From assembly GCF_000008625.1 (NCBI RefSeq), contig NC_000918.1, positions 1,410,001 through 1,442,000 of the forward strand: a stretch of 32,000 bases of DNA. The letters run 5' to 3'. The notes under the pieces were generated by a model. The model saw only the letters and a program-made list of their open reading frames with translations, did no database searches and was not told the DNA's origin. Positions 986 through 12,364 of this stretch are shown here, one piece after another. The DNA is from Aquifex aeolicus VF5. Lineage in GTDB: Bacteria > Aquificota > Aquificia > Aquificales > Aquificaceae. Both the position numbers and the translations under genes were made by a program. The stretch's first letter is position 1. The number at the start of each line of letters is the position of its first letter.

Positions 986-1810
986 TTATTCGTACTCCGT
1001 TGAATCCTTGTCCAGCTCTGCGTACTTTTCGCTCATCTCAACAGCTTGTTCAAACAGCTGTCTTTCTCTTTCCGTAATTTCGACCGGTCTTCTTTCCTTT
1101 GTGGGTACAACTTCTTCTGCGCTTTCCCTTCTTTGTTTACCTTCAAGAACCGCATCCGCAATTTTAGAAGTGAGGAGTTTTATGGATTTGATAGCGTCGT
1201 CGTTTCCGGGAATTGTGTAATCAATAACTGTTGGGTCGCAGTTTGAGTCCGCTATGGCAACTATGGGAATTCCTAGTTTTCTCGCTTCGCTAACCGCTAT
1301 CTTCTCCCTCACCGTGTCTACTATCCAGATAACGTCGGGGAGCTTCTTCATATCCCTTATACCGTTGTAGAGTTTTCTCAGTTTTTCCATTTTCCTTCTC
1401 AAGTTTCTCACTTCCTTTTTGGGGAGGACGTCAAATATTCCGTCTTCTTCCATCCTTTCGAGTGTTTGGAGCTTCATAATGCTCTTTCTGACCGTCTGGA
1501 AGTTTGTGAGGAGTCCACCTACCCATCTTTCGTTAACGTAGAAAGCTCCGCACCTTTCCGCCTCTTCCTTAATAATGTCCTTTGCCTGTTTCTTCGTTCC
1601 GACAAAGAGTATCTCACCGCCCTGAGCAATAACGTCCGAAACGAAGTGATAAGCGTCTTCAAGCATTACTATGGTTTTGTTCAGGTCAATTATGTGTATC
1701 CCGTGTCTGACTCCGTAGATGTAGGGAGCCATTTTGGGGTTCCATCTGGACTTTGAGTGTCCGAAGTGAACACCCGCCTCTAAAAGTTCCTTCATGGAAA
1801 CTACCGGCAT
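986..1810 (-). CDS. rpsB: 30S ribosomal protein S2
   Basis: 274 aa. The N-terminus [27 protein letters not shown] and the motifs VGTKKQA and WVGGLLTNF are canonical S2. An AGGAGG Shine-Dalgarno lies at 1819-1824 on the minus strand. Confidence 0.97.
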
Positions 1811-1901: not shown

Positions 1902-2879
1902 TTAATCCTTCTTCTCACCGTTTTCACCCTTTTTCTTTTCAAGTTCCCTTTTTTCCTCTATTACACTCCTGTCAAACCTGTAAATCCTTCCGCAGAAATT
2001 GCAGGAAACTTCCGCAAGCTCGTTTTCATTAAAGAGGTCCTCAAGTTCCTGAGTACTCATCAAAAACAGCGAAGCCTTTGCTACTTCCTCATCACACGGA
2101 CAGTAATACTCAACTTCCTTCAAACCTATGAGCTGAGGTTCCATGTCTTTTAAGATTTCCACCGCTATGTCCTCAGGTCTCATTCCCTTTTCCATCATCT
2201 CCGTAACGGGAGGGAGGGAGAGAATTCTCTTCTCAAGTAGTTCCTTTACCTTCTCAGAAGTCCCGCCGAGCGTCTGAACCAAGTACCCTCCTGCGTGTTT
2301 TACGCTTCCGTCTTCGTTTACTTTAACACCGACCGCAACCGCGGAAGGCGTTTGTTCGGACTGGTAAAGGTAGTAAGCTATATCCTGTCCTATTTCTCCC
2401 GAAATCAACGGAACTACGCTCGTGTAAGGTTTGCCCATTCCGAGGTCCTTTACAACAGTAAGAGTTCCCTTTCCAACTATCTTTGCAACGTCAAACTTCT
2501 TTTTACCTTCTACTTCTTTTGTGTAGGTATCCACGTTTGGGTTTCCTACAAAGCCCCTTACTCTTCCCTTTGCGTCTGCCTCTACCACTATAGTTCCGAT
2601 AGGTCCATCTCCTTCTATTTTTAAAAGGAGTTTTTGGTTGGTACCGTGCTTGAGGAGAGAAGTTAAGAGAAGGGCTCCCACTATAGCCCTGCCCATGGCA
2701 ACGGTGGCCGACGGTGATAAGTTGTGTATCCTCCTTGCGGTTTCAACGGTGTTTGTAGCTTTAACGACGTAAACCCTTACGGGCTCCTTTTTGGGAACCG
2801 CTATAACCATATAGTCTCTTTCTTGGAAGTAGTCTTTTAGATCCTTCTTTACCTGCTCGCTTAGCTCCTTTATCAGCAT
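1902..2879 (-). CDS. hslO: Hsp33 redox-regulated chaperone
   Basis: 325 aa. The C-terminal zinc centre is CPCDEE...CNFCGRIYRF (CXC...CXXC), and the Hsp33 core includes GRAIVGALLL and GEIGQDIAYYLYQSEQTPSAV. Confidence 0.93.
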   Translation of the reverse strand: MLIKELSEQVKKDLKDYFQERDYMVIAVPKKEPVRVYVVKATNTVETARRIHNLSPSATVAMGRAIVGALLLTSLLKHGTNQKLLLKIEGDGPIGTIVVEADAKGRVRGFVGNPNVDTYTKEVEGKKKFDVAKIVGKGTLTVVKDLGMGKPYTSVVPLISGEIGQDIAYYLYQSEQTPSAVAVGVKVNEDGSVKHAGGYLVQTLGGTSEKVKELLEKRILSLPPVTEMMEKGMRPEDIAVEILKDMEPQLIGLKEVEYYCPCDEEVAKASLFLMSTQELEDLFNENELAEVSCNFCGRIYRFDRSVIEEKRELEKKKGENGEKKD

Positions 2880-2895
2880 AATATTTTAAGTTATC

Positions 2896-5712
2896 CTATC
2901 CCACCGCTCTCTCAATAATACTCTTGACTATTTCCTTCTCAAGGGGTGAGCTTATCTTGGGTATTATCGTTTCCATTACCACGGTCTTGGCATCTCCGTA
3001 CTTTCTCAGTCTCCTTGCACACCTTATCGTGTCCCTGATGGAGAACACGAATTCTACCGGCTCTTCGGACTGCTGTGTCTGGTAAGCCCTGTAAGCCTTT
3101 CTTATCTCGTTTGCTATCTTGAGGAGGTCAAAGAGGAGTTTTACATCTCTTTCCCTTTCGGGAGTTCTGAGTTTTTCTCCGAGCTGTGTCTTTACGTCGT
3201 TTACCACGTAATACCAGAGGTACGTAAACTCTTCCTTGTTCAGAGAAGCAAGTGTATCCAGGTAGTCTTTAAGTATCAGGGCTTCGTCGGGGTAGTAAAA
3301 GCCCTTTTCGTCCTCAAAGGGAGGGTAATCCACGTACATTATGTCCGCCCTTGACTTTATGTCTTGAGGGAGTTCCGAAACACCGAGGTAGTTCTGAGGG
3401 TTCATTCCCCCCACGAGTATCACGTCGGGTCTCGCCTTTACCACCTCTCCGTAAGAGAGAACCAGGTACCTCCTGTAGTCAAAGAGGGGGTTGAATATTT
3501 TGACAAGAGAGGGAGGAAGTGTGTTTATCTCGTCAAGGTATATCACGGCTCCGGGCGTTCTCAGGGCCCTAACGAGGTCGGAGTAAACCTTCTTCGTTCC
3601 CTTTTTGGGGTCAAACTCGTAAATGAAGGTTATGTCTTCCTTTTCCATCTTTGAATTGCAGGGGATTATAAAGAGGGGTCTGTTGGTGAGAGCAGAGAAT
3701 ACTTCAACGAGGAAGTTTTTACCTACACCCGCGTCACCCTCAAGTATGAGTATTCCCTCGTGGTACTGGAGCTGCTCTTTTACTAAAGATGTGAACCTCT
3801 CAAGGTTCTGGACGAACCAGGGGGTTTCTTCAAAAGAGACGAACTCCGGAACTCTGTACTGCTCTGCTGAACAAAGGCCGTTTAAGTGTTTTAAGTACCT
3901 TCCGACCCAAGGGGGAAAGTGCCCGACTTCAGACTGTTCAAGTATGTTGTTGTAGCGCTTTGGCTCTACGCTCAGGCCGTCTTCCCTCTCAAAGATAAGC
4001 CTTGCGAATACTTTTCCGTCCTGCAGGAACTTGTCCTCTACTTTTACGTGCCACTTGTACCTTACGGGCTCAGCTTTGAACTTCTCTACTTCTTCCCTTC
4101 CGAAGATTACCTTGTCTTCAAGGAGTTTTATAGTGAAGGTTTTTAGCCTGTCCTCTATTAATTTCTCCTGAAGGGTCTTGAGGAGTTCTTCGTTTGCGTA
4201 GTTGTAAAACTCCCTGGGAAGTGTTGATATAAACTTCCTTGTTTCCTTTACCTCTTGGAGGCTTTCGAGCTCCGAGAAACTCTTAACCTTTGCCCTTGAT
4301 ATGGCTTCCCTTACTTTTTCAAGGTGCTCGTTTAACTTCTTGTTGAAGAACTCAACGACTTCCTTTCTCAGTTCTTCCAGCTTTTCCTTCCATTCCTGGG
4401 AGACTTCTTCAATTTTTTCCTTGAGTCTGTTGTAGTCCTGTCCGGTTATTGTTCCTTCCTGGAGTTTTTTCTTTATGTTTTCGTAAAAGACTTCGAGTTT
4501 TCTCTCTTGAAGTTCTTCACGTGCCTTCAGTATTAATTCTCTTACTTCCTTTAAAGGAACGCTTATTTCTTCAAGTTCCCTTAAGGGCTTTACGGACTCA
4601 AGTTCCTCTTCGGTTTTTGCCTCCTTTAAGACTTTTTTAAACTCCTTGTATATCTCGTTTGCGTTCTTGATTATCTGCTTTTGCCTTTCCTTGGGATACA
4701 AGAAGTCTATGAGGTTAGTTTCGAACTTCTCAAGGAAGTAGTAAAGCTTTCCTTCTTGTTCTTCCCACCTTGAGGTGTAAACGCTTCCGTCTGAGGCTAC
4801 ACGGACCACGCTGTAGCCGTACCCTTCCAGAAATCCTAAAAATTGATTGTTCCTCAGGTCGTAAACGCCGAGTCTGTTTTCCTCTTCATCCGCACTAAAG
4901 AGGAAGCTACCTTCCGGAGAAACGTCTATGAGTCCAACCCTGTGGGGGAGTTCAAGCTCTCCCTCCACTCTATCCAGGGCGGAGTCGTAAATTGCAATCT
5001 TTTGTTTTTCGTTGTCCGCTATGAATACTTTATCCTCGTAAAGGGCTATCGCCCTATTTCCCGCGTAGTTCAGTTTTCTGAGAAGATTACCGCCTATTGA
5101 GAAAACCGCACACCCTTGCGTTCCGCTCAGGAAAAGCTTCCCGTTCGGAAGTATCTTTAAAGCTCTGAGGTCACCTATTTCCGCGTCCCTGTATATGAAG
5201 GTGCTCTTAAAGTCAACGGTGGTCTGGGTGAGATCGCCTGAAAGGTCTATTACGTAAACCTTCTCTCCTACCACTCCGAAGGCTAAAGAACCTTTCCTTA
5301 TATCGAGTCCACCAGTTGGTCTTAGTCCTTCCTGTGAAATCCTTACACTTTTCCATGTCTTGGGGTCTTTTGAGTTTTCCAGGTAGTAAATCACGAGGTA
5401 TGGAGGTGCTACTACTCCCAAGTACTTTCCTCTGAAGACTATGTCCGTGATGGACTGAGCGGGGGGCTTTGAGGGGAGTCTGTGAAGGTTGCCAGCCCAA
5501 TCGTAGAGCTGGAATATGCCGTGTCTCCTTCCTACAAGAACCCAGTAGGCGTCTTCGGAAACGTCTAAGGTTTCTATCCAGTACTCCTCTATCTTTGCGT
5601 CCGGATCCCTTTTTAAGGGGAAGTACTTGAACTTCAAATCACCTACGGTGAACTCGGGAGTTTTTTCTTCTTTCCTTTCTTCCTTTTTAAGGAACTTGTT
5701 TAAAATACCCAT
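2896..5712 (-). CDS. Large multidomain protein: N-terminal beta-propeller-like region, central coiled coil, C-terminal AAA_5 (MoxR/dynein-like) ATPase. Function unknown.
   Basis: 938-aa uninterrupted ORF. The Walker A motif GDAGVGKN lies at nt 3715-3738 and the Walker B motif VIYLDE at about nt 3529-3546. Residues about 340-530 are K/E-rich with a heptad-like pattern. Residues about 40-330 are beta-strand-rich with blade-like repeats (VYVIDLSG, IAIYDS, LIDVSPEG, LGVYDLRN, VRVASDGSVY). The ORF ends 16 nt upstream of hslO. Confidence 0.85.
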   Translation of the reverse strand: MGILNKFLKKEERKEEKTPEFTVGDLKFKYFPLKRDPDAKIEEYWIETLDVSEDAYWVLVGRRHGIFQLYDWAGNLHRLPSKPPAQSITDIVFRGKYLGVVAPPYLVIYYLENSKDPKTWKSVRISQEGLRPTGGLDIRKGSLAFGVVGEKVYVIDLSGDLTQTTVDFKSTFIYRDAEIGDLRALKILPNGKLFLSGTQGCAVFSIGGNLLRKLNYAGNRAIALYEDKVFIADNEKQKIAIYDSALDRVEGELELPHRVGLIDVSPEGSFLFSADEEENRLGVYDLRNNQFLGFLEGYGYSVVRVASDGSVYTSRWEEQEGKLYYFLEKFETNLIDFLYPKERQKQIIKNANEIYKEFKKVLKEAKTEEELESVKPLRELEEISVPLKEVRELILKAREELQERKLEVFYENIKKKLQEGTITGQDYNRLKEKIEEVSQEWKEKLEELRKEVVEFFNKKLNEHLEKVREAISRAKVKSFSELESLQEVKETRKFISTLPREFYNYANEELLKTLQEKLIEDRLKTFTIKLLEDKVIFGREEVEKFKAEPVRYKWHVKVEDKFLQDGKVFARLIFEREDGLSVEPKRYNNILEQSEVGHFPPWVGRYLKHLNGLCSAEQYRVPEFVSFEETPWFVQNLERFTSLVKEQLQYHEGILILEGDAGVGKNFLVEVFSALTNRPLFIIPCNSKMEKEDITFIYEFDPKKGTKKVYSDLVRALRTPGAVIYLDEINTLPPSLVKIFNPLFDYRRYLVLSYGEVVKARPDVILVGGMNPQNYLGVSELPQDIKSRADIMYVDYPPFEDEKGFYYPDEALILKDYLDTLASLNKEEFTYLWYYVVNDVKTQLGEKLRTPERERDVKLLFDLLKIANEIRKAYRAYQTQQSEEPVEFVFSIRDTIRCARRLRKYGDAKTVVMETIIPKISSPLEKEIVKSIIERAVG

Positions 5713-5786: not shown

Positions 5787-6200
5787 ATGAAAGCTTACAC
5801 CAAGTACTTAACCTTCAACACGAAGAAGAGAAGGGAACTCATAAGGATTACGGACGAGGTTAAAAAAGCGGTGGAAGAAAGCGAAGTGAAGGAAGGTCTT
5901 TGTCTTGTTTCCTCCATGCACCTGACATCCTCCGTAATCATTCAGGACGATGAGGAGGGACTTCACGAAGACATCTGGGAGTGGCTCGAGAAATTAGCAC
6001 CATACAGACCTGATTACAAGCACCACAGAACCGGAGAGGACAACGGAGACGCTCACCTAAAAAACCTCTTAACTCACCTTCAGGTAGTCCTTCCTATAAC
6101 GAACGGGAAGCTGGATCTGGGACCGTGGCAGGAGATTTTTTACGCGGAGTTTGACGGACAGAGACCGAAAAGAGTTGTTATAAAGATAATCGGGGAGTAA
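5787..6200 (+). CDS. YjbQ/UPF0047 family protein (secondary thiamine-phosphate synthase-like)
   Basis: 137 aa. The segments [35 protein letters not shown] and [13 protein letters not shown] match the conserved YjbQ family pattern. Confidence 0.85.
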
Positions 6201-6210
6201 ATAATTCTTA

Positions 6211-7263
6211 ATGGCTGAGGAGCATAAAACAGAACGGGCAACTCCGTACAAAAGGAGGAAGGTAAGGGAAGAGGGAAACGTAGCAAAGAGCCACGAGATA
6301 GCATCCTCCCTTGTAGTCCTCCTTTCCCTTCTCCTATTACTCTTCCTTGGAACTTACATAGCTAAAGAAGTAATACTCATTTTTCTGGCGGTAACGGGAT
6401 ACGTCCACGCGGATATATCCGAGCTAGGAAGCCTTTACGAGAACTTTTACGAAAACATCGTTAAGGTTTTAACCCCGCTGTTTTTCTTAGCTCTATTAGT
6501 CGTCATTCTTTCTCACGTGGCACAGTTCGGATTTATTTTTACCTTGAAGCCTCTCTCTTTTAAGTGGGAAAGGATAAACCCTTTTGAAGGTATAAAGCGA
6601 TTAATCTCTCTAACCACTTTATTTGAAACGGTAAAAAACACCCTGAAGGCTTTTCTGCTTATAGGTATAGCGGTTTTCGTTTTAAAGGGCAGTCTTTACT
6701 TTTTCCTCTCCTCTTCCACTTACCCTTTGGCAGAAACTCTGAAGAGTTTTATTAAGACCTCAGCTATAACGCTTATAACCCTCGGAGTGGTTGCCCTCCT
6801 AATAGCCTTTCTGGATTACGCCTTCAAACGCTGGCAGTACGAAAAGAAGATAATGATGTCGAGAAGGGAATTGAAGGAGGAGTACAAACAACTGGAAGGA
6901 CACCCGGAAGTAAAGAGCAGGATAAAGGCAAGGATGAGGGAGCTCGCAAAGAGCAGGATGATGGCAGAAGTTCCCAAGGCAACAGTAGTTATCACAAACC
7001 CAACACACATAGCGATAGCCCTCAAATACAATCCGGAGAAAGACAAAGCTCCCGTTGTTGTTGCAAAGGGAAAGGGCACTATAGCCCAGAAAATCGTTGA
7101 GATTGCAGAAAACTACAGTATACCCGTAGTGAGGAAACCGGAACTCGCAAGGGCACTCTACCCTGCGGTTGAGGTAGGAAAGGAAATATCCCCTAAATTT
7201 TACAAAGCCGTAGCGGAAATAATAGCCTACGTTATGTTCAAAAAGAAAAAGGTTTACGCCTGA
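6211..7263 (+). CDS. flhB: Flagellar export apparatus protein FlhB
   Basis: 350 aa. Features are the N-terminal EKTERATPYKRRKVREEGNVAKS, four transmembrane segments, and the autocleavage motif NPTH in VVITNPTHIAIALKY. Confidence 0.93.
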   Translation: MAEEHKTERATPYKRRKVREEGNVAKSHEIASSLVVLLSLLLLLFLGTYIAKEVILIFLAVTGYVHADISELGSLYENFYENIVKVLTPLFFLALLVVILSHVAQFGFIFTLKPLSFKWERINPFEGIKRLISLTTLFETVKNTLKAFLLIGIAVFVLKGSLYFFLSSSTYPLAETLKSFIKTSAITLITLGVVALLIAFLDYAFKRWQYEKKIMMSRRELKEEYKQLEGHPEVKSRIKARMRELAKSRMMAEVPKATVVITNPTHIAIALKYNPEKDKAPVVVAKGKGTIAQKIVEIAENYSIPVVRKPELARALYPAVEVGKEISPKFYKAVAEIIAYVMFKKKKVYA

Positions 7264-8564
7264 GGACGCAGGAAAGAAAGCACCTTCTGGGCTACCTTTT
7301 TAGAAGCCCTTATGCAGTCTGCGGTGGAGACCCCGTAGAGCCAGTTCCCCGTCAGGAACAGCCCAGGATAATCCTTTTCCATTTCTTGAGCTAGGTTCAA
7401 GAACCTGTCGTACCCCAGAGTGTACTGAGGTATAGCCCTCTTCCACTTCTGAACGTGCATAAAGTCTATACAGTCTATTTGAAGTATCTCTTTCAGTTCT
7501 CTTTCTACTATGTTTTCTATTTCTTCCTCGGAGAGCTCTATTACCTCTCTGTCCGTTGCTCCTCCCAGGAACACCGTTAAAAGTTCCTTTCCCTGAGGTG
7601 CTCTTCCCGGGAATAACTTTGACATAAACATAGCTCCGAGAATTCTCTTTTTTCCACTCTCGGAACTAAGAAGCCGAACCTTCGGGAATTTCCCTTCAAC
7701 ACCTACGTTCACAACTACTACGGGAGGATAATCTATCTTGTCGAACTCTTCGCTCGCACTGAAAGAAACTTCCTTCAGGAGATAAGAGGAAGTGTAGGCC
7801 GGGGAAGCTACTACGACACTTTTTGTCTCAACCTTTTTCCCGCGCACATCAAGCCTGAAGAAATCCTCAAACTTCCTCATTCTCAGAACTACGTTTTCTG
7901 TATGAACTTCAAGCTTTTGAGCAAGTGCATTTATTAGCTCTCCCAAGCCTTCCCCGAAGGATATTAGCTTGCCTTTAGGGCCTGCGGTTTTTTCTTTGAT
8001 AAATGCCTTTATTAAACTTCCGTACTTTTTCTGAGCTTCATAAAGTTTAGGTGTGGCGTGCTTGAGGGATAACTTTTCCGGATCACCAGCGTAAACCCCC
8101 GAGATAAAAGGAGCCACGACGTAATTCAGGAATTCCTCGCCGAAATGTTCTCTTACAAAATCCGCTATGGAAATGTCTTCATCAACACCTCTCTTAAAGA
8201 TTTCCGTAAGGACTTTCAACTTCGTTTTAAGGGAAAGAAGCGGTGTTTTAAGAAATTCCACGGGCGACATGGGAAGGGGAATTAACCTTCCCTTTTTGTA
8301 TATGTATCTATATTTAGAAGAAGGAGAAGCCTCTACGGGTTCAATTCCTGCCTCTTTCAAGAAATCTATAACTTCTTGATCCGCAAGTATAGTCTGAGCC
8401 CCTACTTCAAAGAGATATCCCTTTTCTTTCACCGTGTGGATCGTCCCCCCTATCCTGTCGTCCTTTTCGTAAACTACAACGTCCACACCCTCCTTTTTTA
8501 ACCTGTATGCTGTAGAAAGTCCAGAAATTCCTGCACCTATTACCACAACCTCTCGCATATCCAA
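7254..8564 (-). CDS. hemY: Protoporphyrinogen oxidase (HemY-type FAD enzyme)
   Basis: 436 aa. It has an N-terminal dinucleotide fold VVVIGAGISGLSTAYRLKKEG..VVVYEKDDRIGG. The length and the C-terminal GLFLTGNWLYGVSTADCI match HemY/PPOX. It overlaps the flhB 3' end by 10 nt. Confidence 0.85.
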   Translation of the reverse strand: MDMREVVVIGAGISGLSTAYRLKKEGVDVVVYEKDDRIGGTIHTVKEKGYLFEVGAQTILADQEVIDFLKEAGIEPVEASPSSKYRYIYKKGRLIPLPMSPVEFLKTPLLSLKTKLKVLTEIFKRGVDEDISIADFVREHFGEEFLNYVVAPFISGVYAGDPEKLSLKHATPKLYEAQKKYGSLIKAFIKEKTAGPKGKLISFGEGLGELINALAQKLEVHTENVVLRMRKFEDFFRLDVRGKKVETKSVVVASPAYTSSYLLKEVSFSASEEFDKIDYPPVVVVNVGVEGKFPKVRLLSSESGKKRILGAMFMSKLFPGRAPQGKELLTVFLGGATDREVIELSEEEIENIVERELKEILQIDCIDFMHVQKWKRAIPQYTLGYDRFLNLAQEMEKDYPGLFLTGNWLYGVSTADCIRASKKVAQKVLSFLRPQA

Positions 8565-9126: not shown

Positions 9127-10140
9127 ATGAACAGGAAGAAATTTCTTCTTGGGGTACTAGCATTAGCAATTTTTCCCGCCGCAGGAATAGCAAAGGAAAA
9201 AGTAATCAACGGTGCTGGAGCAACTTTTCCCGCTCCTCTCTACTGGAAATGGGCTGACGCTTACTACAAGGCAACCGGTATTAAGGTAAACTACCAGTCC
9301 ATAGGTTCAGGTGGAGGAGTTAGGCAGATAGTAAACAGAACAGTTGACTTTGGAGCATCTGATGCTCCCTTAAAACCTGAGGAAACAAAAAAACACAATC
9401 TGGCTCAATTCCCGACTGTGATTGGAGGTGTTACCGTAGCTTATAACTTAAGGGGAGTAGAAAATCTCAAGCTCTCTACAAGAGCGGTTTGTGATATTTT
9501 TCTCGGAAAAATTAAGTACTGGGATGACCCAGTTATAAAGAAGGATAATCCCGGAGTAAAACTTCCTCACAAGAGAATTACCGTTGTTCGCAGGAGTGAC
9601 GGTTCAGGAACTACCTGGATATTCACAAACTACCTCTCCAAAGCTTGCCCCGAGTGGAAGGAAAAAGTCGGTTACGGAAAAGCGGTAAGGTGGCCTACAG
9701 GTATAGGTGCTAAAGGAAACGAAGGTGTAGCAAACTATATAAGAAGGATAAAAGGAGCTATAGGCTATGTGGAATACGCTTACGCAATTCAAAACAAGAT
9801 ACCCGTCGCGGCAGTGGAAAACAGAGATGGAAAATTTGTAAAACCTTCTATAGAAACATTCCAAGCAGCTGCTGCAAACGCAAAGTGGGATCCTAAAAAA
9901 GACTTCTACGAAGTCCTGACATGGCAGCCCGGTGAAAAAGCTTACCCCATAGCTGGTGCTACCTTTATACTCCTTGCAAAGGACGAAGACAGGAAGGAAA
10001 TAAATAAGGAAGTAGTTAAATTCTTTGACTGGGCTTACAAAAATGGTGATAAAATGGCTATAGAGTTGCATTACGTACCGTTGCCCGAAAACGTTAAGAA
10101 CATGATTAGGAACTACTGGAGAGAGCATGGATGGTATTAA
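9127..10140 (+). CDS. pstS: Phosphate ABC transporter, periplasmic phosphate-binding protein
   Basis: 337 aa with a signal peptide. Matching segments are GAGATFPAPLY, YQSIGSGGG, DFGASDAP and RSDGSGTT. A GGGAGG Shine-Dalgarno lies upstream. Confidence 0.95.
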   Translation: MNRKKFLLGVLALAIFPAAGIAKEKVINGAGATFPAPLYWKWADAYYKATGIKVNYQSIGSGGGVRQIVNRTVDFGASDAPLKPEETKKHNLAQFPTVIGGVTVAYNLRGVENLKLSTRAVCDIFLGKIKYWDDPVIKKDNPGVKLPHKRITVVRRSDGSGTTWIFTNYLSKACPEWKEKVGYGKAVRWPTGIGAKGNEGVANYIRRIKGAIGYVEYAYAIQNKIPVAAVENRDGKFVKPSIETFQAAAANAKWDPKKDFYEVLTWQPGEKAYPIAGATFILLAKDEDRKEINKEVVKFFDWAYKNGDKMAIELHYVPLPENVKNMIRNYWREHGWY

Positions 10141-11089
10141 TAGAAGGAAAGACAAGGTAATAGACAAGCTTGTCTTTTTAAGTCTGGGCTTTTTTGCCTT
10201 TTTTCTGGGGCTTTTATACCCTCTCTTCGTAGGAGTATCTCTCTTAAAAGAGTCGTGGCTCGCTATTCAGAAGTTCGGAGTTATAGGGTTCATAACGGGT
10301 ACCGTCTGGGATCCCGTTCAGGAGATATTTGGCGGACTTCCCGCAATAGTGGGAACTCTTATTACAACCTTCTTAGCTTCCCTGATAGCGATACCCGTTT
10401 GTATAGGTATAGCGATTTTCATAGCAGAACTCTGTCCCAAACCTCTAAAGCCGGTGTTTACTACGGCGATTGAACTACTCGGAGCAATACCGAGCATCAT
10501 TTACGGGATGTGGGGATTTTTTATAATAGCCCCATTGATGGCAGACTATGTAGAACCCTTCCTGCAGGAAACATTTATAGACGTTCCCGTAATAGGAAAA
10601 CTCTTTGACGGAGCACCTACCGGTATTGACGTCCTCACTTCAAGCTTTGTTCTTTCCATAATGATAATCCCCTTCATGGCCTCAATAGTAAAAGACGCCT
10701 TTGAAATGACGCCTCAGCTATTAAAGGAAGCAGGATATGGAATGGGCGCCACAAAGTGGGAGGTTATAAAAGACGTTATAATCCCTTACGCTTTTCCGGG
10801 AATCGTGGGAGGAGCGGTTCTTTCTGTGGGAAGGGCACTCGGAGAGACTATGGCAGTCGCATTTCTAACAGGAAACGTTCACCAAATTCCCAAGTCTTTA
10901 TTTGACCAGTTAACGACCATTACCGTTGCGATAGCAAACGAGTTTACAGAAGCTCACCAAGACATATACCTTTCTTCCCTTTACTACCTTGCCCTAATAC
11001 TCTTTATAATGTCTTTCCTCCTTTTAATCCTCAGCAAGTTCTTAATCTTCAAGAGGTTGGAGAAAAGATGGAAGGTCACGGGAATTTAG
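10127..11089 (+). CDS. pstC: Phosphate ABC transporter permease PstC
   Basis: 320 aa polytopic membrane protein containing the EAA-type loop EAGYGMGATKWEVI. It overlaps pstS by 14 nt. Confidence 0.92.
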   Translation: MDGINRRKDKVIDKLVFLSLGFFAFFLGLLYPLFVGVSLLKESWLAIQKFGVIGFITGTVWDPVQEIFGGLPAIVGTLITTFLASLIAIPVCIGIAIFIAELCPKPLKPVFTTAIELLGAIPSIIYGMWGFFIIAPLMADYVEPFLQETFIDVPVIGKLFDGAPTGIDVLTSSFVLSIMIIPFMASIVKDAFEMTPQLLKEAGYGMGATKWEVIKDVIIPYAFPGIVGGAVLSVGRALGETMAVAFLTGNVHQIPKSLFDQLTTITVAIANEFTEAHQDIYLSSLYYLALILFIMSFLLLILSKFLIFKRLEKRWKVTGI

Positions 11090-11925
11090 AAAGGTACGTA
11101 AAGTGGAGGAAGTTCAAGAGCAACTTAATTCTGTTTTTCACATTTCTTACAGCACTCTACGGACTCGTCTGGCTTGTTTGGATAATAACCGATGTAACTA
11201 TAAAAGGATTTTCAAACCTTAGTTTGGATCTTCTCCTGAAGGATCCTACTCCCCCGGGCGTGGAGGGTGGTGGTTTAAAACACGCCTTCGTGGGACATTT
11301 AATAATCACTTCTCTGGCTGTAGTTCTCGGTGTTCCCATAGGCATAGCCGCAGGAGTATTCTTTACGGAGTACGGCAGGTACAGCAGGTTTGTCTCCTTA
11401 CTCAGGGATCTTACGGACAGTATAGTGAGCCTACCTTCTATAATTGTCGGAACATTTATTTACGCTGTAATGGTCAAACCGGTGGGACACTTTTTCGCCT
11501 TAAGCGGTTCTGTTTCGCTAGCCTTGTTAATGCTTCCGGTTATAGCCATAACAACCGCCCAGATGCTGAAAATGGTTCCCGACTCTTTGAGGGAAGCTGC
11601 TTACGCCCTCGGAGCGTATAAGTGGCAGGTTATAAAAGACGTTTCCCTCTCTGTCGCAAAGAGGGGAATACTTACGGGAGTAATTCTGGGAATTGCCAGA
11701 ATTACAGGGGAAACCGCTCCGCTTCTATTTACTTCGTTTAACAACAACTTTACCACTTACAACATATTTGAACCTATGGCCTCGCTCACTGTTACCATTT
11801 TCGTTTACGTTATGGGACCCTACGACGACTGGCACAGAAAAGCGTGGGCTGCCTCGCTCATACTCACAATCGGAACGCTTATGTTCTTCATCCTTGCAAA
11901 AATCCTCGTCAGAGCTAAAAAGTAA
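11068..11925 (+). CDS. pstA: Phosphate ABC transporter permease PstA
   Basis: 285 aa membrane protein containing REAAYALGAYKWQVI and GETAPLLFT. It overlaps pstC by 22 nt. Confidence 0.92.
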   Translation: MEGHGNLERYVKWRKFKSNLILFFTFLTALYGLVWLVWIITDVTIKGFSNLSLDLLLKDPTPPGVEGGGLKHAFVGHLIITSLAVVLGVPIGIAAGVFFTEYGRYSRFVSLLRDLTDSIVSLPSIIVGTFIYAVMVKPVGHFFALSGSVSLALLMLPVIAITTAQMLKMVPDSLREAAYALGAYKWQVIKDVSLSVAKRGILTGVILGIARITGETAPLLFTSFNNNFTTYNIFEPMASLTVTIFVYVMGPYDDWHRKAWAASLILTIGTLMFFILAKILVRAKK

Positions 11926-11932
11926 AATTATT

Positions 11933-12364
11933 ATGAAAAAATTCTTTCTGTTTCTTGTTTTACCAATATTTCTCTTCGCTTCTCCTCTTAAGGCTGTTTT
12001 TGACTGTGCGGTCGGAGACCTGGACTGGATTAGCTTAAGACTCAGTCTTATTAAGAAAACCGCAGAACAATTAATGGAAGAAGGAAAAAGCTACAGATTT
12101 GTTATAACGATACACTCCCACTGTATAAAAGTGGTTGATGCAGACCTGAAGAAATTTCCCGAAAGTGAACGCAGGAAGATTGAACTAATTCAGAGTCAGT
12201 TAAAAACTTTAAAAGAAATGTATTCAGTAGATGTTAAAGCCTGTCAGATAGCTATGAATAGAGGAAAGATTAAGAAGGTTCCCCCCTTTGTAGAAACCGT
12301 TCCAAATAGCTGGATCACACTAATTGAACTCCAGAATAAAGGCTTTGCCTTTGTACCCTTTTAA
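11933..12364 (+). CDS. Secreted DsrE/DsrF-like protein (COG1416-type), paralog of 476-985
   Basis: The start is set at the ATG at 11933 (MKKFFLFLVLPIFLFASP signal peptide), 8 nt after the pstA stop. The longer track ORF from 11693 overlaps pstA out of frame. The C-terminus VDVKACQIAMNRG...VETVPNSWITLIELQNKGFAFVPF aligns with the 476-985 product. Confidence 0.6.
   Translation: MKKFFLFLVLPIFLFASPLKAVFDCAVGDLDWISLRLSLIKKTAEQLMEEGKSYRFVITIHSHCIKVVDADLKKFPESERRKIELIQSQLKTLKEMYSVDVKACQIAMNRGKIKKVPPFVETVPNSWITLIELQNKGFAFVPF

Follow-up and report, generated by a model that had tools for sequence, protein, structure and literature searches.

A conserved MoxR-class AAA+ ATPase of Aquifex aeolicus with a predicted N-terminal beta-propeller and an asparagine in its Walker A motif

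Few AAA+ machines are as poorly understood as the MoxR ATPases. The small number of solved examples (CbbQO, NorQD, RavA-ViaA and CobST) all, to our knowledge, rely on a second protein, a VWA adaptor, in the maturation of a particular metalloenzyme or complex. What, then, is a MoxR-class protein that carries a large N-terminal extension of its own and has no VWA gene beside it? This question is raised by an open reading frame (ORF) in a 32,000 nt-long stretch of the Aquifex aeolicus VF5 chromosome (NC_000918.1, positions 1,410,001 to 1,442,000; the window, whose own numbering is used below). Annotated as 'AAA family ATPase', the ORF runs on the minus strand from an ATG at 5712 to a TAG stop codon (2898-2896; 5712..2896 in all) and encodes 938 amino acids, while the plus-strand translation of 2896-5712 shows stops throughout. 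An earlier note, made from the letters of this stretch, had found the ORF but missed that it lies on the minus strand, described it as a fusion of beta-propeller, coiled coil and ATPase, and proposed a function linked to the chaperone Hsp33, encoded by the adjacent hslO. The observation of the ORF and its features is confirmed here. The chaperone linkage is set aside, leaving a conserved, uncharacterized member of the MoxR class rather than a categorically new system. In our reading, to which we assign a probability of about 0.6, the gene product is a cytoplasmic AAA+ ATPase of the MoxR class, with CbbQ and NorQ as its closest solved relatives, acting as a propeller-bearing remodeler. Three features make the protein unusual, namely a seven-bladed propeller fused to the ATPase, a linker without known fold relative, and an asparagine in the P-loop.

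Domain architecture and predicted mechanism

The C-terminal part of the protein is a MoxR/AAA_5-type, CbbQ/NorQ-like AAA+ module, composed of an alpha/beta subdomain (residues 641-805; 3298..3792, minus strand) and an all-alpha lid (residues 806-938; 2899..3297, minus strand) that is modeled with helices at 809-936. On residues 655-788, Pfam AAA_5 scored 105.9 bits (cut-off 22; E 2e-30), and it was the only Pfam domain above cut-off in the entire protein. The best sequence matches in the PDB were CbbQ (5c3c, E 4e-17) and NorQ (9qh4, E 1e-10), with an alignment covering residues 655-823. A Foldseek search of the PDB with the predicted structure (see below) returned CbbQ2 (6l1q) and NorQ (9qh4-9qhd) at E values of ~1e-12 and target-normalized template modeling (TM) scores of 0.72-0.76. 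The lid is included in these alignments to CbbQ and NorQ (~320 columns), and the CbbQ alignment traverses the segments of the helix-2 insert and the pre-sensor-1 hairpin without large gaps. Pfam, PDB sequence and Foldseek matches thus agree with the earlier assignment of this module to the AAA_5/MoxR P-loop ATPases.

All motifs quoted in the earlier note were recovered, the SRAD-type one as KSRAD, and each is encoded on the minus strand; invariance refers here to an alignment of 27 orthologues with 44-85% identity. Walker A reads GDAGVGKN (residues 659-666; 3715..3738), with Asn666 replacing the canonical Ser/Thr, a substitution that had been overlooked when the motif was quoted. Walker B (VIYLDE, residues 723-728; 3529..3546) has invariant D727 and E728, and the sensor 1 region (GGMNP, residues 768-772; 3397..3411), which aligns with the NP of CbbQ, has invariant M770, N771 and P772. 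KSRAD (residues 786-790; 3343..3357) is aligned to the KQRF of CbbQ and contains invariant K786 and R788, the latter being a candidate arginine finger by position only. Within the lid, FSIRDT (residues 890-895; 3028..3045) provides R893 as a candidate sensor 2, judged by its place in the lid, and F890, S891, R893, D894 and R897 are all invariant.

An AlphaFold2 model of the whole protein, built on the 27 orthologues (mean predicted local distance difference test score, pLDDT, of 84.5), indicated residues 20-332 (4717..5655, minus strand) to adopt a seven-bladed WD40/YVTN-like beta-propeller. This segment is modeled with 28 beta strands, fitting seven blades of four strands each, at a pLDDT mostly of 85-95, and Foldseek retrieved G-beta, Cdc20, WDR61 and 1l0q (seven-bladed) from the PDB (target-normalized TM ~0.7). 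The model therefore predicts a closed seven-bladed WD40/YVTN propeller. Sequence support is weak: phmmer detected the WD40 domain of ATG16L1 at E 4e-5 and the YVTN protein 1l0q at E 2e-3, and no Pfam WD40, YVTN or PQQ model exceeded its cut-off (WD40_like, 18 bits with a cut-off of 40; WD40_Prp19, 14.5 bits). The N-terminal propeller suspected in the earlier note is hence upheld by AlphaFold, which gives seven blades, and by Foldseek, with Pfam support remaining sub-threshold. Outside the ATPase, blades 1-3 (residues 36-140) form the most conserved part of the protein in the orthologue alignment. The propeller is preceded by a basic, amphipathic N-terminal tail (residues 1-19; 5656..5712, minus strand; pLDDT <50 for residues 1-17) whose pattern M-x-[FIL]-L-x-K-[LF] is kept in 27/27 aligned orthologues. 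A longer version, M-x-[FIL]-L-x-K-[LF]-x-x-K/R, likewise amphipathic and basic, is common to all Aquificae orthologues. The tail could be a docking or membrane-binding helix.

Downstream of the propeller, the chain continues with a helical region rich in lysine and glutamate (residues 333-525; 4138..4716, minus strand; 37% K+E). In line with the earlier description of a ~190-residue coiled coil, this region is K/E-rich and all-helical in the model (335-525), but it is composed of about eight helices, the longest spanning 24-35 residues, and not of a single long coiled coil. A small beta domain (residues 526-592) and connecting helices (593-640), encoded together at 3793..4137 on the minus strand, directly precede the AAA+ module. 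The beta domain, with strands at 528-592 and invariant W554, R576, D578, G579, E583 and R586, is missing from the module list of the earlier note. Foldseek found no fold match in the PDB for a separate model of residues 333-652 (pLDDT 83; best E 0.057, TM <0.3), and comparison of the middle region with Pfam, PDB sequences and PDB profiles gave nothing credible.

Taken together, Pfam, AlphaFold and Foldseek sustain a three-module architecture of propeller, K/E-rich helical region and MoxR-type AAA_5 ATPase. As the earlier note had suspected, this architecture does not correspond to a characterized family: AAA_5 is its only Pfam domain, the best PADLOC match had an E value of 0.009, and we found no publication on the family in the Aquifex, MoxR, AAA_5, propeller, VWA and Patescibacteria literature. 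NCBIfam gave no meaningful match for the protein, its AAA part, a Patescibacteria relative or the VWA partner of such relatives (see below).

How such a protein might work is suggested by the NorQD complex, in which the NorQ hexamer receives the VWA domain at its C-terminal opening and a finger of this domain reaches through the pore to the N-terminal helix-2 inserts, ATP hydrolysis remodeling the adaptor linker (PMC13036017). Like its CbbQ and NorQ relatives, the Aquifex protein would form a hexameric ring. Its helix-2-insert loops would grip a segment of a specific client or adaptor inside the central pore, and ATP hydrolysis may pull or twist that segment. By analogy with NorQ, six N-terminal arms, each made of beta domain, helical spacer and propeller, would extend from the N-terminal face of the ring, the face that also bears the pore loops. 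The propellers would then recognize a client or partner, and the ring would do the mechanical work.

Relatives, the VWA partner and the P-loop

Using the whole protein as query, a word-indexed search returned 63 full-length homologues (44-85% identity), and all named ones are Aquificaceae (Aquifex, Hydrogenivirga, Thermocrinis, Hydrogenobacter and Hydrogenobaculum). The same architecture is found at ~37% identity in a further Aquificales lineage (P0066, L087, L078). Full-length orthologues occur throughout the Aquificaceae, and their AAA module is almost invariant. In one Aquificales metagenome-assembled genome (MAG), uvrB lies just upstream of the ATPase gene, with an intein bearing a LAGLIDADG homing-endonuclease domain (L087:4691-8236). 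An Aquificaceae-type copy (L059; 54% identity, 933 aa) is located on a contig labeled Acidobacteria bacterium (RFFP01000022.1), flanked by LipB and RNase G as in Aquificaceae MAGs; the contig probably derives from an Aquificaceae genome and was mis-binned.

When the orthologue profile was used in an exhaustive HMMER search, 3036 proteins were retrieved at E <=1e-3, including 141 at E <=1e-30. Next after the Aquificae came proteins of ~1080-1230 aa matching profile positions ~350-934 (E 1e-80 to 1e-112), which were reached only by this exhaustive profile search and not by the word-indexed one. In a phyletic scan with one genome per species, these relatives belonged mainly to the Patescibacteria, or Candidate Phyla Radiation (CPR), i.e. 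Magasanik-, Uhr-, Davies-, Curtiss- and Amesbacteria, Microgenomates, Peregrini- and Peribacteria and Absconditabacterales; a few carriers were MAGs with other labels. They share with the Aquifex protein residues 462-938 (hhalign E 2e-113, 39% identity), a span that begins late in the helical region and takes in both the beta domain and the AAA+ module, as well as the last propeller blades (residues 227-336; hhalign probability 96.5%, E 1e-9). No alignment to the CPR relatives was obtained for residues 36-140, that is, blades 1-3 of the Aquificaceae propeller. Being strongly conserved yet not aligned to CPR proteins, these blades fit a lineage-specific binding partner. The longer N-termini of the CPR relatives had no Pfam match.

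The earlier picture of a MoxR ATPase without VWA pairing had overlooked these relatives, which do pair with a VWA protein. At 18 of 23 relative loci (Patescibacteria and others), a gene for a 660-900-aa VWA protein lies on the same strand at a distance of 10-76 nt; beside the Aquificae genes, in contrast, no VWA/MIDAS (metal ion-dependent adhesion site) gene was found. The C-terminus of the partner matches Pfam VWA, VWA_2 and CobT_C (up to E 5e-11) and carries a DxSGS MIDAS motif. It is joined by a low-complexity, Q/G/E-rich linker to an N-terminal domain in which HExGH is invariant and an ED pair lies downstream of it. The partner may be a metallopeptidase-like adaptor. It belongs to no NCBIfam or PHROG family. 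The CPR sister family is a classical MoxR-VWA pair. Given that it occupies ~6 kb in many Patescibacteria genomes of only ~1 Mb, an important cellular role is suggested.

Several observations concern the CPR loci themselves. The VWA partner genes include L009:7565-9931, L012:6666-9062, L014:198-2621 and 15 others. In five Absconditabacterales/Peribacteria loci (L080, L081, L083, L084 and L088), ATPase and VWA genes appeared fragmented under genetic code 11 and became intact ORFs of 977-1140 aa under code 25 (UGA = Gly). A short form, found at L068:6623-12348 and L073:5965-12063, consists, in this order, of a VWA gene, a 300-360-aa gene, a 550-aa GKN ATPase and a further ~300-aa gene. Both ~300-aa genes of L068 (8786-9682 and 11452-12348) match DUF5701; Pfam recognizes neither of those of L073, of which the final gene (11125-12063) falls in a BLAST cluster with the ATPase family.

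Is there a comparable partner in the Aquificaceae? As the earlier note stated, no VWA gene adjoins the ATPase ORF, nor is there one anywhere in the window. A profile of the VWA partner gave no match in six-frame translations of 67 Aquificae loci (<=10 kb on each side) or of the 32-kb window. Two word-indexed searches, each capped at 8000 candidates and made with the partner profile either in full or after trimming (94 and 90 matches, respectively), likewise returned no Aquificae protein, but these two negatives are weak because the same kind of search missed the CPR homologues of the ATPase. It is possible, at odds we would place clearly below even, that the machine is the same in both groups and in Aquificaceae requires a VWA/HExGH adaptor encoded elsewhere in the genome, whose VWA finger would enter the pore as that of NorD enters NorQ, the propeller binding the client or the N-terminal domain of the adaptor. 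The close, same-strand spacing of ATPase and VWA genes at the 18 non-Aquificae loci argues for such an unlinked adaptor, as do the high conservation, between the groups, of the helix-2 insert and of the entire AAA+ module with the beta domain before it, and the weakness of both database negatives. Moreover, operons are known to be dispersed in A. aeolicus, and a partner encoded at a distance would fit this pattern. Against it stand the silence of the partner profile in the 67 loci and the window, the lack of any Aquificae protein among the profile matches, and propeller residues 36-140, whose failure to align with CPR proteins suggests a lineage-specific partner. We put forward with similar reserve the idea that the VWA adaptor was lost in Aquificaceae and the propeller took over client recognition. 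The protein would then be a self-contained, VWA-independent MoxR remodeler and the type member of a large, unstudied GK[N/D] clade, with a linker module lacking a fold relative. Its gene stands alone among unrelated housekeeping genes in the Aquificaceae. What probability these two accounts leave is shared by the alternatives discussed below and by possibilities that we have not considered.

The P-loop raises the further question of whether the ATPase site is functional. K665 and N666 are invariant in the 27 orthologues, the matching Walker A asparagine is >=90% conserved in 25 CPR relatives, and many more distant AAA_5 relatives (among P0131-P0206) carry GKN or GKD, P0190 having the canonical GKT. 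This distribution suggests that a GK[N/D] Walker A marks a large AAA_5 clade and, by its own motif, the Aquifex protein is a member of this uncharacterized group. Eight of the more distant GKN/GKD relatives contained AAA_5 only, offering no informative domain fusion. While the canonical GxxxxGK[S/T] is not matched, the deviation lies inside the MoxR/AAA_5 class and does not exclude the protein from it. Could the protein nevertheless be a catalytically dead scaffold, in which the asparagine abolishes Mg-ATP hydrolysis and only nucleotide binding or oligomerization is retained? The invariant asparagine after the Walker A lysine (Asn or Asp in relatives), where Ser/Thr is expected, would be in keeping with this. 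However, the Walker B Asp-Glu, the sensor-1 asparagine, the candidate arginine finger and the lid arginines (R893/R897), among them the candidate sensor 2, are all invariant in the 27 sequences, which is unexpected in a degenerate site, and side-chain oxygens of Asn or Asp could in principle ligate Mg2+. Because every other catalytic residue is invariant, we infer GKN to be a functional P-loop variant, and consider a dead scaffold unlikely.

The gene neighborhood and hslO

Coordinates and Pfam matches bear out the gene order given in the earlier note: the stop codon of the ATPase ORF is followed, after 16 nt, by the ATG of hslO at 2879 (1902..2879, minus strand; Pfam HSP33, E 3e-88), and hslO by rpsB (986..1810, minus strand; Pfam Ribosomal_S2, E 1e-99). 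No terminator-like site was detected between the ATPase ORF and hslO, and co-transcription of the two genes in A. aeolicus is possible. A sigma-70-like TTGAGA-16-TATTAT sequence (10/12 matches; minus strand, 2942..2915) lies inside the 3′ end of the ORF, ~35 nt upstream of the hslO start, and could be a separate hslO promoter; the numbers of promoter and terminator sites in the region are at chance level compared to shuffled sequence.

Across 67 Aquificaceae/Aquificales loci, hslO was the downstream neighbor in only four, all from the Aquifex clade (73-100% identity), namely A. aeolicus and three MAGs (L044, L046 and L039). The adjacency is absent in A. pyrophilus (85% identity), where the neighbors are RuvX and a small unannotated protein, and in Hydrogenobacter, Thermocrinis and Hydrogenobaculum. 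There, the ATPase gene is accompanied by reverse gyrase and an aminotransferase (H. thermophilus), miaA and MatE (T. minervae), or Rieske/bc1 genes and dnaG-rpoD (Hydrogenobaculum), while many MAGs have LipB and RNase G, and one Aquificaceae MAG a MoCF biosynthesis gene and a SpoU methylase. Clustering of the 67 loci revealed only lineage-specific neighbors (LipB/RNase G, Rieske/DnaG, TetR, SpoU). An unannotated 186-aa neighbor protein was confined to the Aquifex clade and is not encoded in the window.

These data bear on the proposal that the ATPase is a proteostasis or quality-control machine coupled to, and co-transcribed with, Hsp33. The 16-nt same-strand gap without a terminator-like site and the recurrence of the arrangement in the three Aquifex-clade MAGs are what such coupling would predict. 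Yet the adjacency is missing from 63 of the 67 loci, including the close relative A. pyrophilus, other lineages carry RNase G, DnaG, SpoU methylase, aminotransferase or MatE downstream, the CPR relatives have no hslO linkage, and hslO is preceded by the promoter-like sequence mentioned above (at a site number expected by chance). A functional link to Hsp33 is thus unsupported, as the adjacency holds in only four loci, and we regard the coupling as very improbable. The earlier note had itself stated that orthologues not adjacent to hslO would undercut its proposal, which is essentially what was observed. In sum, the adjacency looks incidental, a local accident of gene order rather than functional coupling, and the hslO-rpsB context should not serve to annotate the ATPase gene.

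On its upstream side, the ATPase gene is flanked by a divergent UPF0047 gene and flhB, and farther along by ORFs resembling the phosphate-transport genes pstS, pstC and pstA, called from their translations only (5787-7263 and 9127-11925 for all of these together). None of the UPF0047, flhB and pst-like genes of the window recurs beside ATPase orthologues elsewhere. In the gap between hslO and rpsB (minus strand, 1830-1886), a GC-rich nested stem-loop shortly precedes the Shine-Dalgarno sequence of rpsB. The 101-nt intergenic stretch has a minimum free energy of -35.8 kcal/mol, with a z-score against shuffled sequences of only -1.4, and the stem-loop has neither a U-tail nor an Rfam match. It could be a leader element of rpsB or a structure at the transcript end of hslO. 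The Rfam scan of the window gave no match.

As improbable as the coupling to Hsp33 is a role in nucleoside triphosphate-dependent conflict or in defense against phages, as in the MoxR-vWA systems of Kaur, Burroughs, Iyer and Aravind (2020), which, like the present family, combine a MoxR ATPase with a beta-propeller, a vWA protein (here in CPR, where the metallopeptidase-like HExGH could be an effector) and, in some published systems, unusual P-loops: those systems are ternary, their third component being VMAP, iSTAND, FtsH or a vWA-fused propeller, often with effectors, and their P-loop variant is GxxxTAKS (PMC7159879), whereas the Aquifex ATPase bears the propeller at its own N-terminus, no third component is present in the examined Aquificae and CPR neighborhoods, PADLOC yielded only two weak matches (E 0.009 and 0.012), both in the K/E-rich helical region, and Aquificaceae-wide conservation among varied housekeeping genes is the opposite of a mobile defense island that diversifies fast.

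The remodeler reading and comparison with known systems

With the alternatives in place, several points weigh against the reading of the protein as a propeller-bearing MoxR-class remodeler. The relative placement of its domains is unreliable at a whole-chain predicted TM score (pTM) of 0.55. As asparagine occupies the position of the Mg2+-ligating Ser/Thr, ATPase activity is an assumption. The VWA-paired CPR relatives have a nearly identical pore-loop region, pointing to a possible need for a VWA partner that was missed. Finally, no gene neighbor is conserved that would point to a client. With its fused propeller and without a detectable VWA neighbor, the Aquificaceae protein offers a test of whether the ATPase can itself embody the adaptor role, and nature provides, in the invariant GKN/GKD, a test of whether Walker A can do without its hydroxyl. 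As the product of a hyperthermophile, the protein should suit structural work.

Among characterized systems, CbbQ of the Rubisco activase CbbQO and NorQ of NorQD, which inserts non-heme iron into cNOR, resemble the Aquifex protein most closely, in that they have a single AAA_5 module, a helix-2 insert, a pre-sensor-1 hairpin and an all-alpha lid. Their partners CbbO and NorD, like that of the CPR relatives, are VWA proteins with a DxSGS MIDAS motif encoded by an adjacent gene; the HExGH motif in the N-terminal domain of the CPR partner is not described for NorD in the NorQD publications consulted. CbbQ and NorQ are, however, ~260-380 aa long with little or no N-terminal extension, compared to 640 extra residues in the Aquifex protein, and have GKS/T instead of GKN in Walker A. 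CbbQ, GvpN and NorQ are also linked to client operons (Rubisco, nor or gvp), whereas no Rubisco or nor genes and no VWA gene neighbor the Aquifex gene. The protein does not fit the definition of the CbbQ/GvpN/NorQ subfamily as a stand-alone module within a client operon.

CobS, the motor of the ATP-driven cobaltochelatase, and its VWA subunit CobT provide a second comparison. The Aquifex AAA module matches PHROG 249 ('porphyrin biosynthesis', taken as CobS-like) at E 3e-12, in parallel to the CobT_C match of the CPR VWA partners. The N-terminal domains differ, though, with no CobN or cobalamin genes nearby and no NCBIfam CobS or CobT match. RavA-ViaA of E. coli is a precedent for a MoxR protein that has its own client-binding domain, RavA binding LdcI, in addition to a VWA partner. 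RavA has no propeller, its extra domains are C-terminal, and its chains were not among the PDB sequence matches at E <=1. Rea1/Midasin and dynein, which fall into the same Pfam AAA_5 class, concatenate six AAA modules, compared to one in the Aquifex protein. The sole echo of them in sequence was a non-significant match to Ytm1 (E 0.07, 38 residues), judged to be due to chance. Rea1, in turn, acts on the WD40 proteins Ytm1 and Rsa4 via MIDAS/VWA, and thereby brings together the same three kinds of parts.

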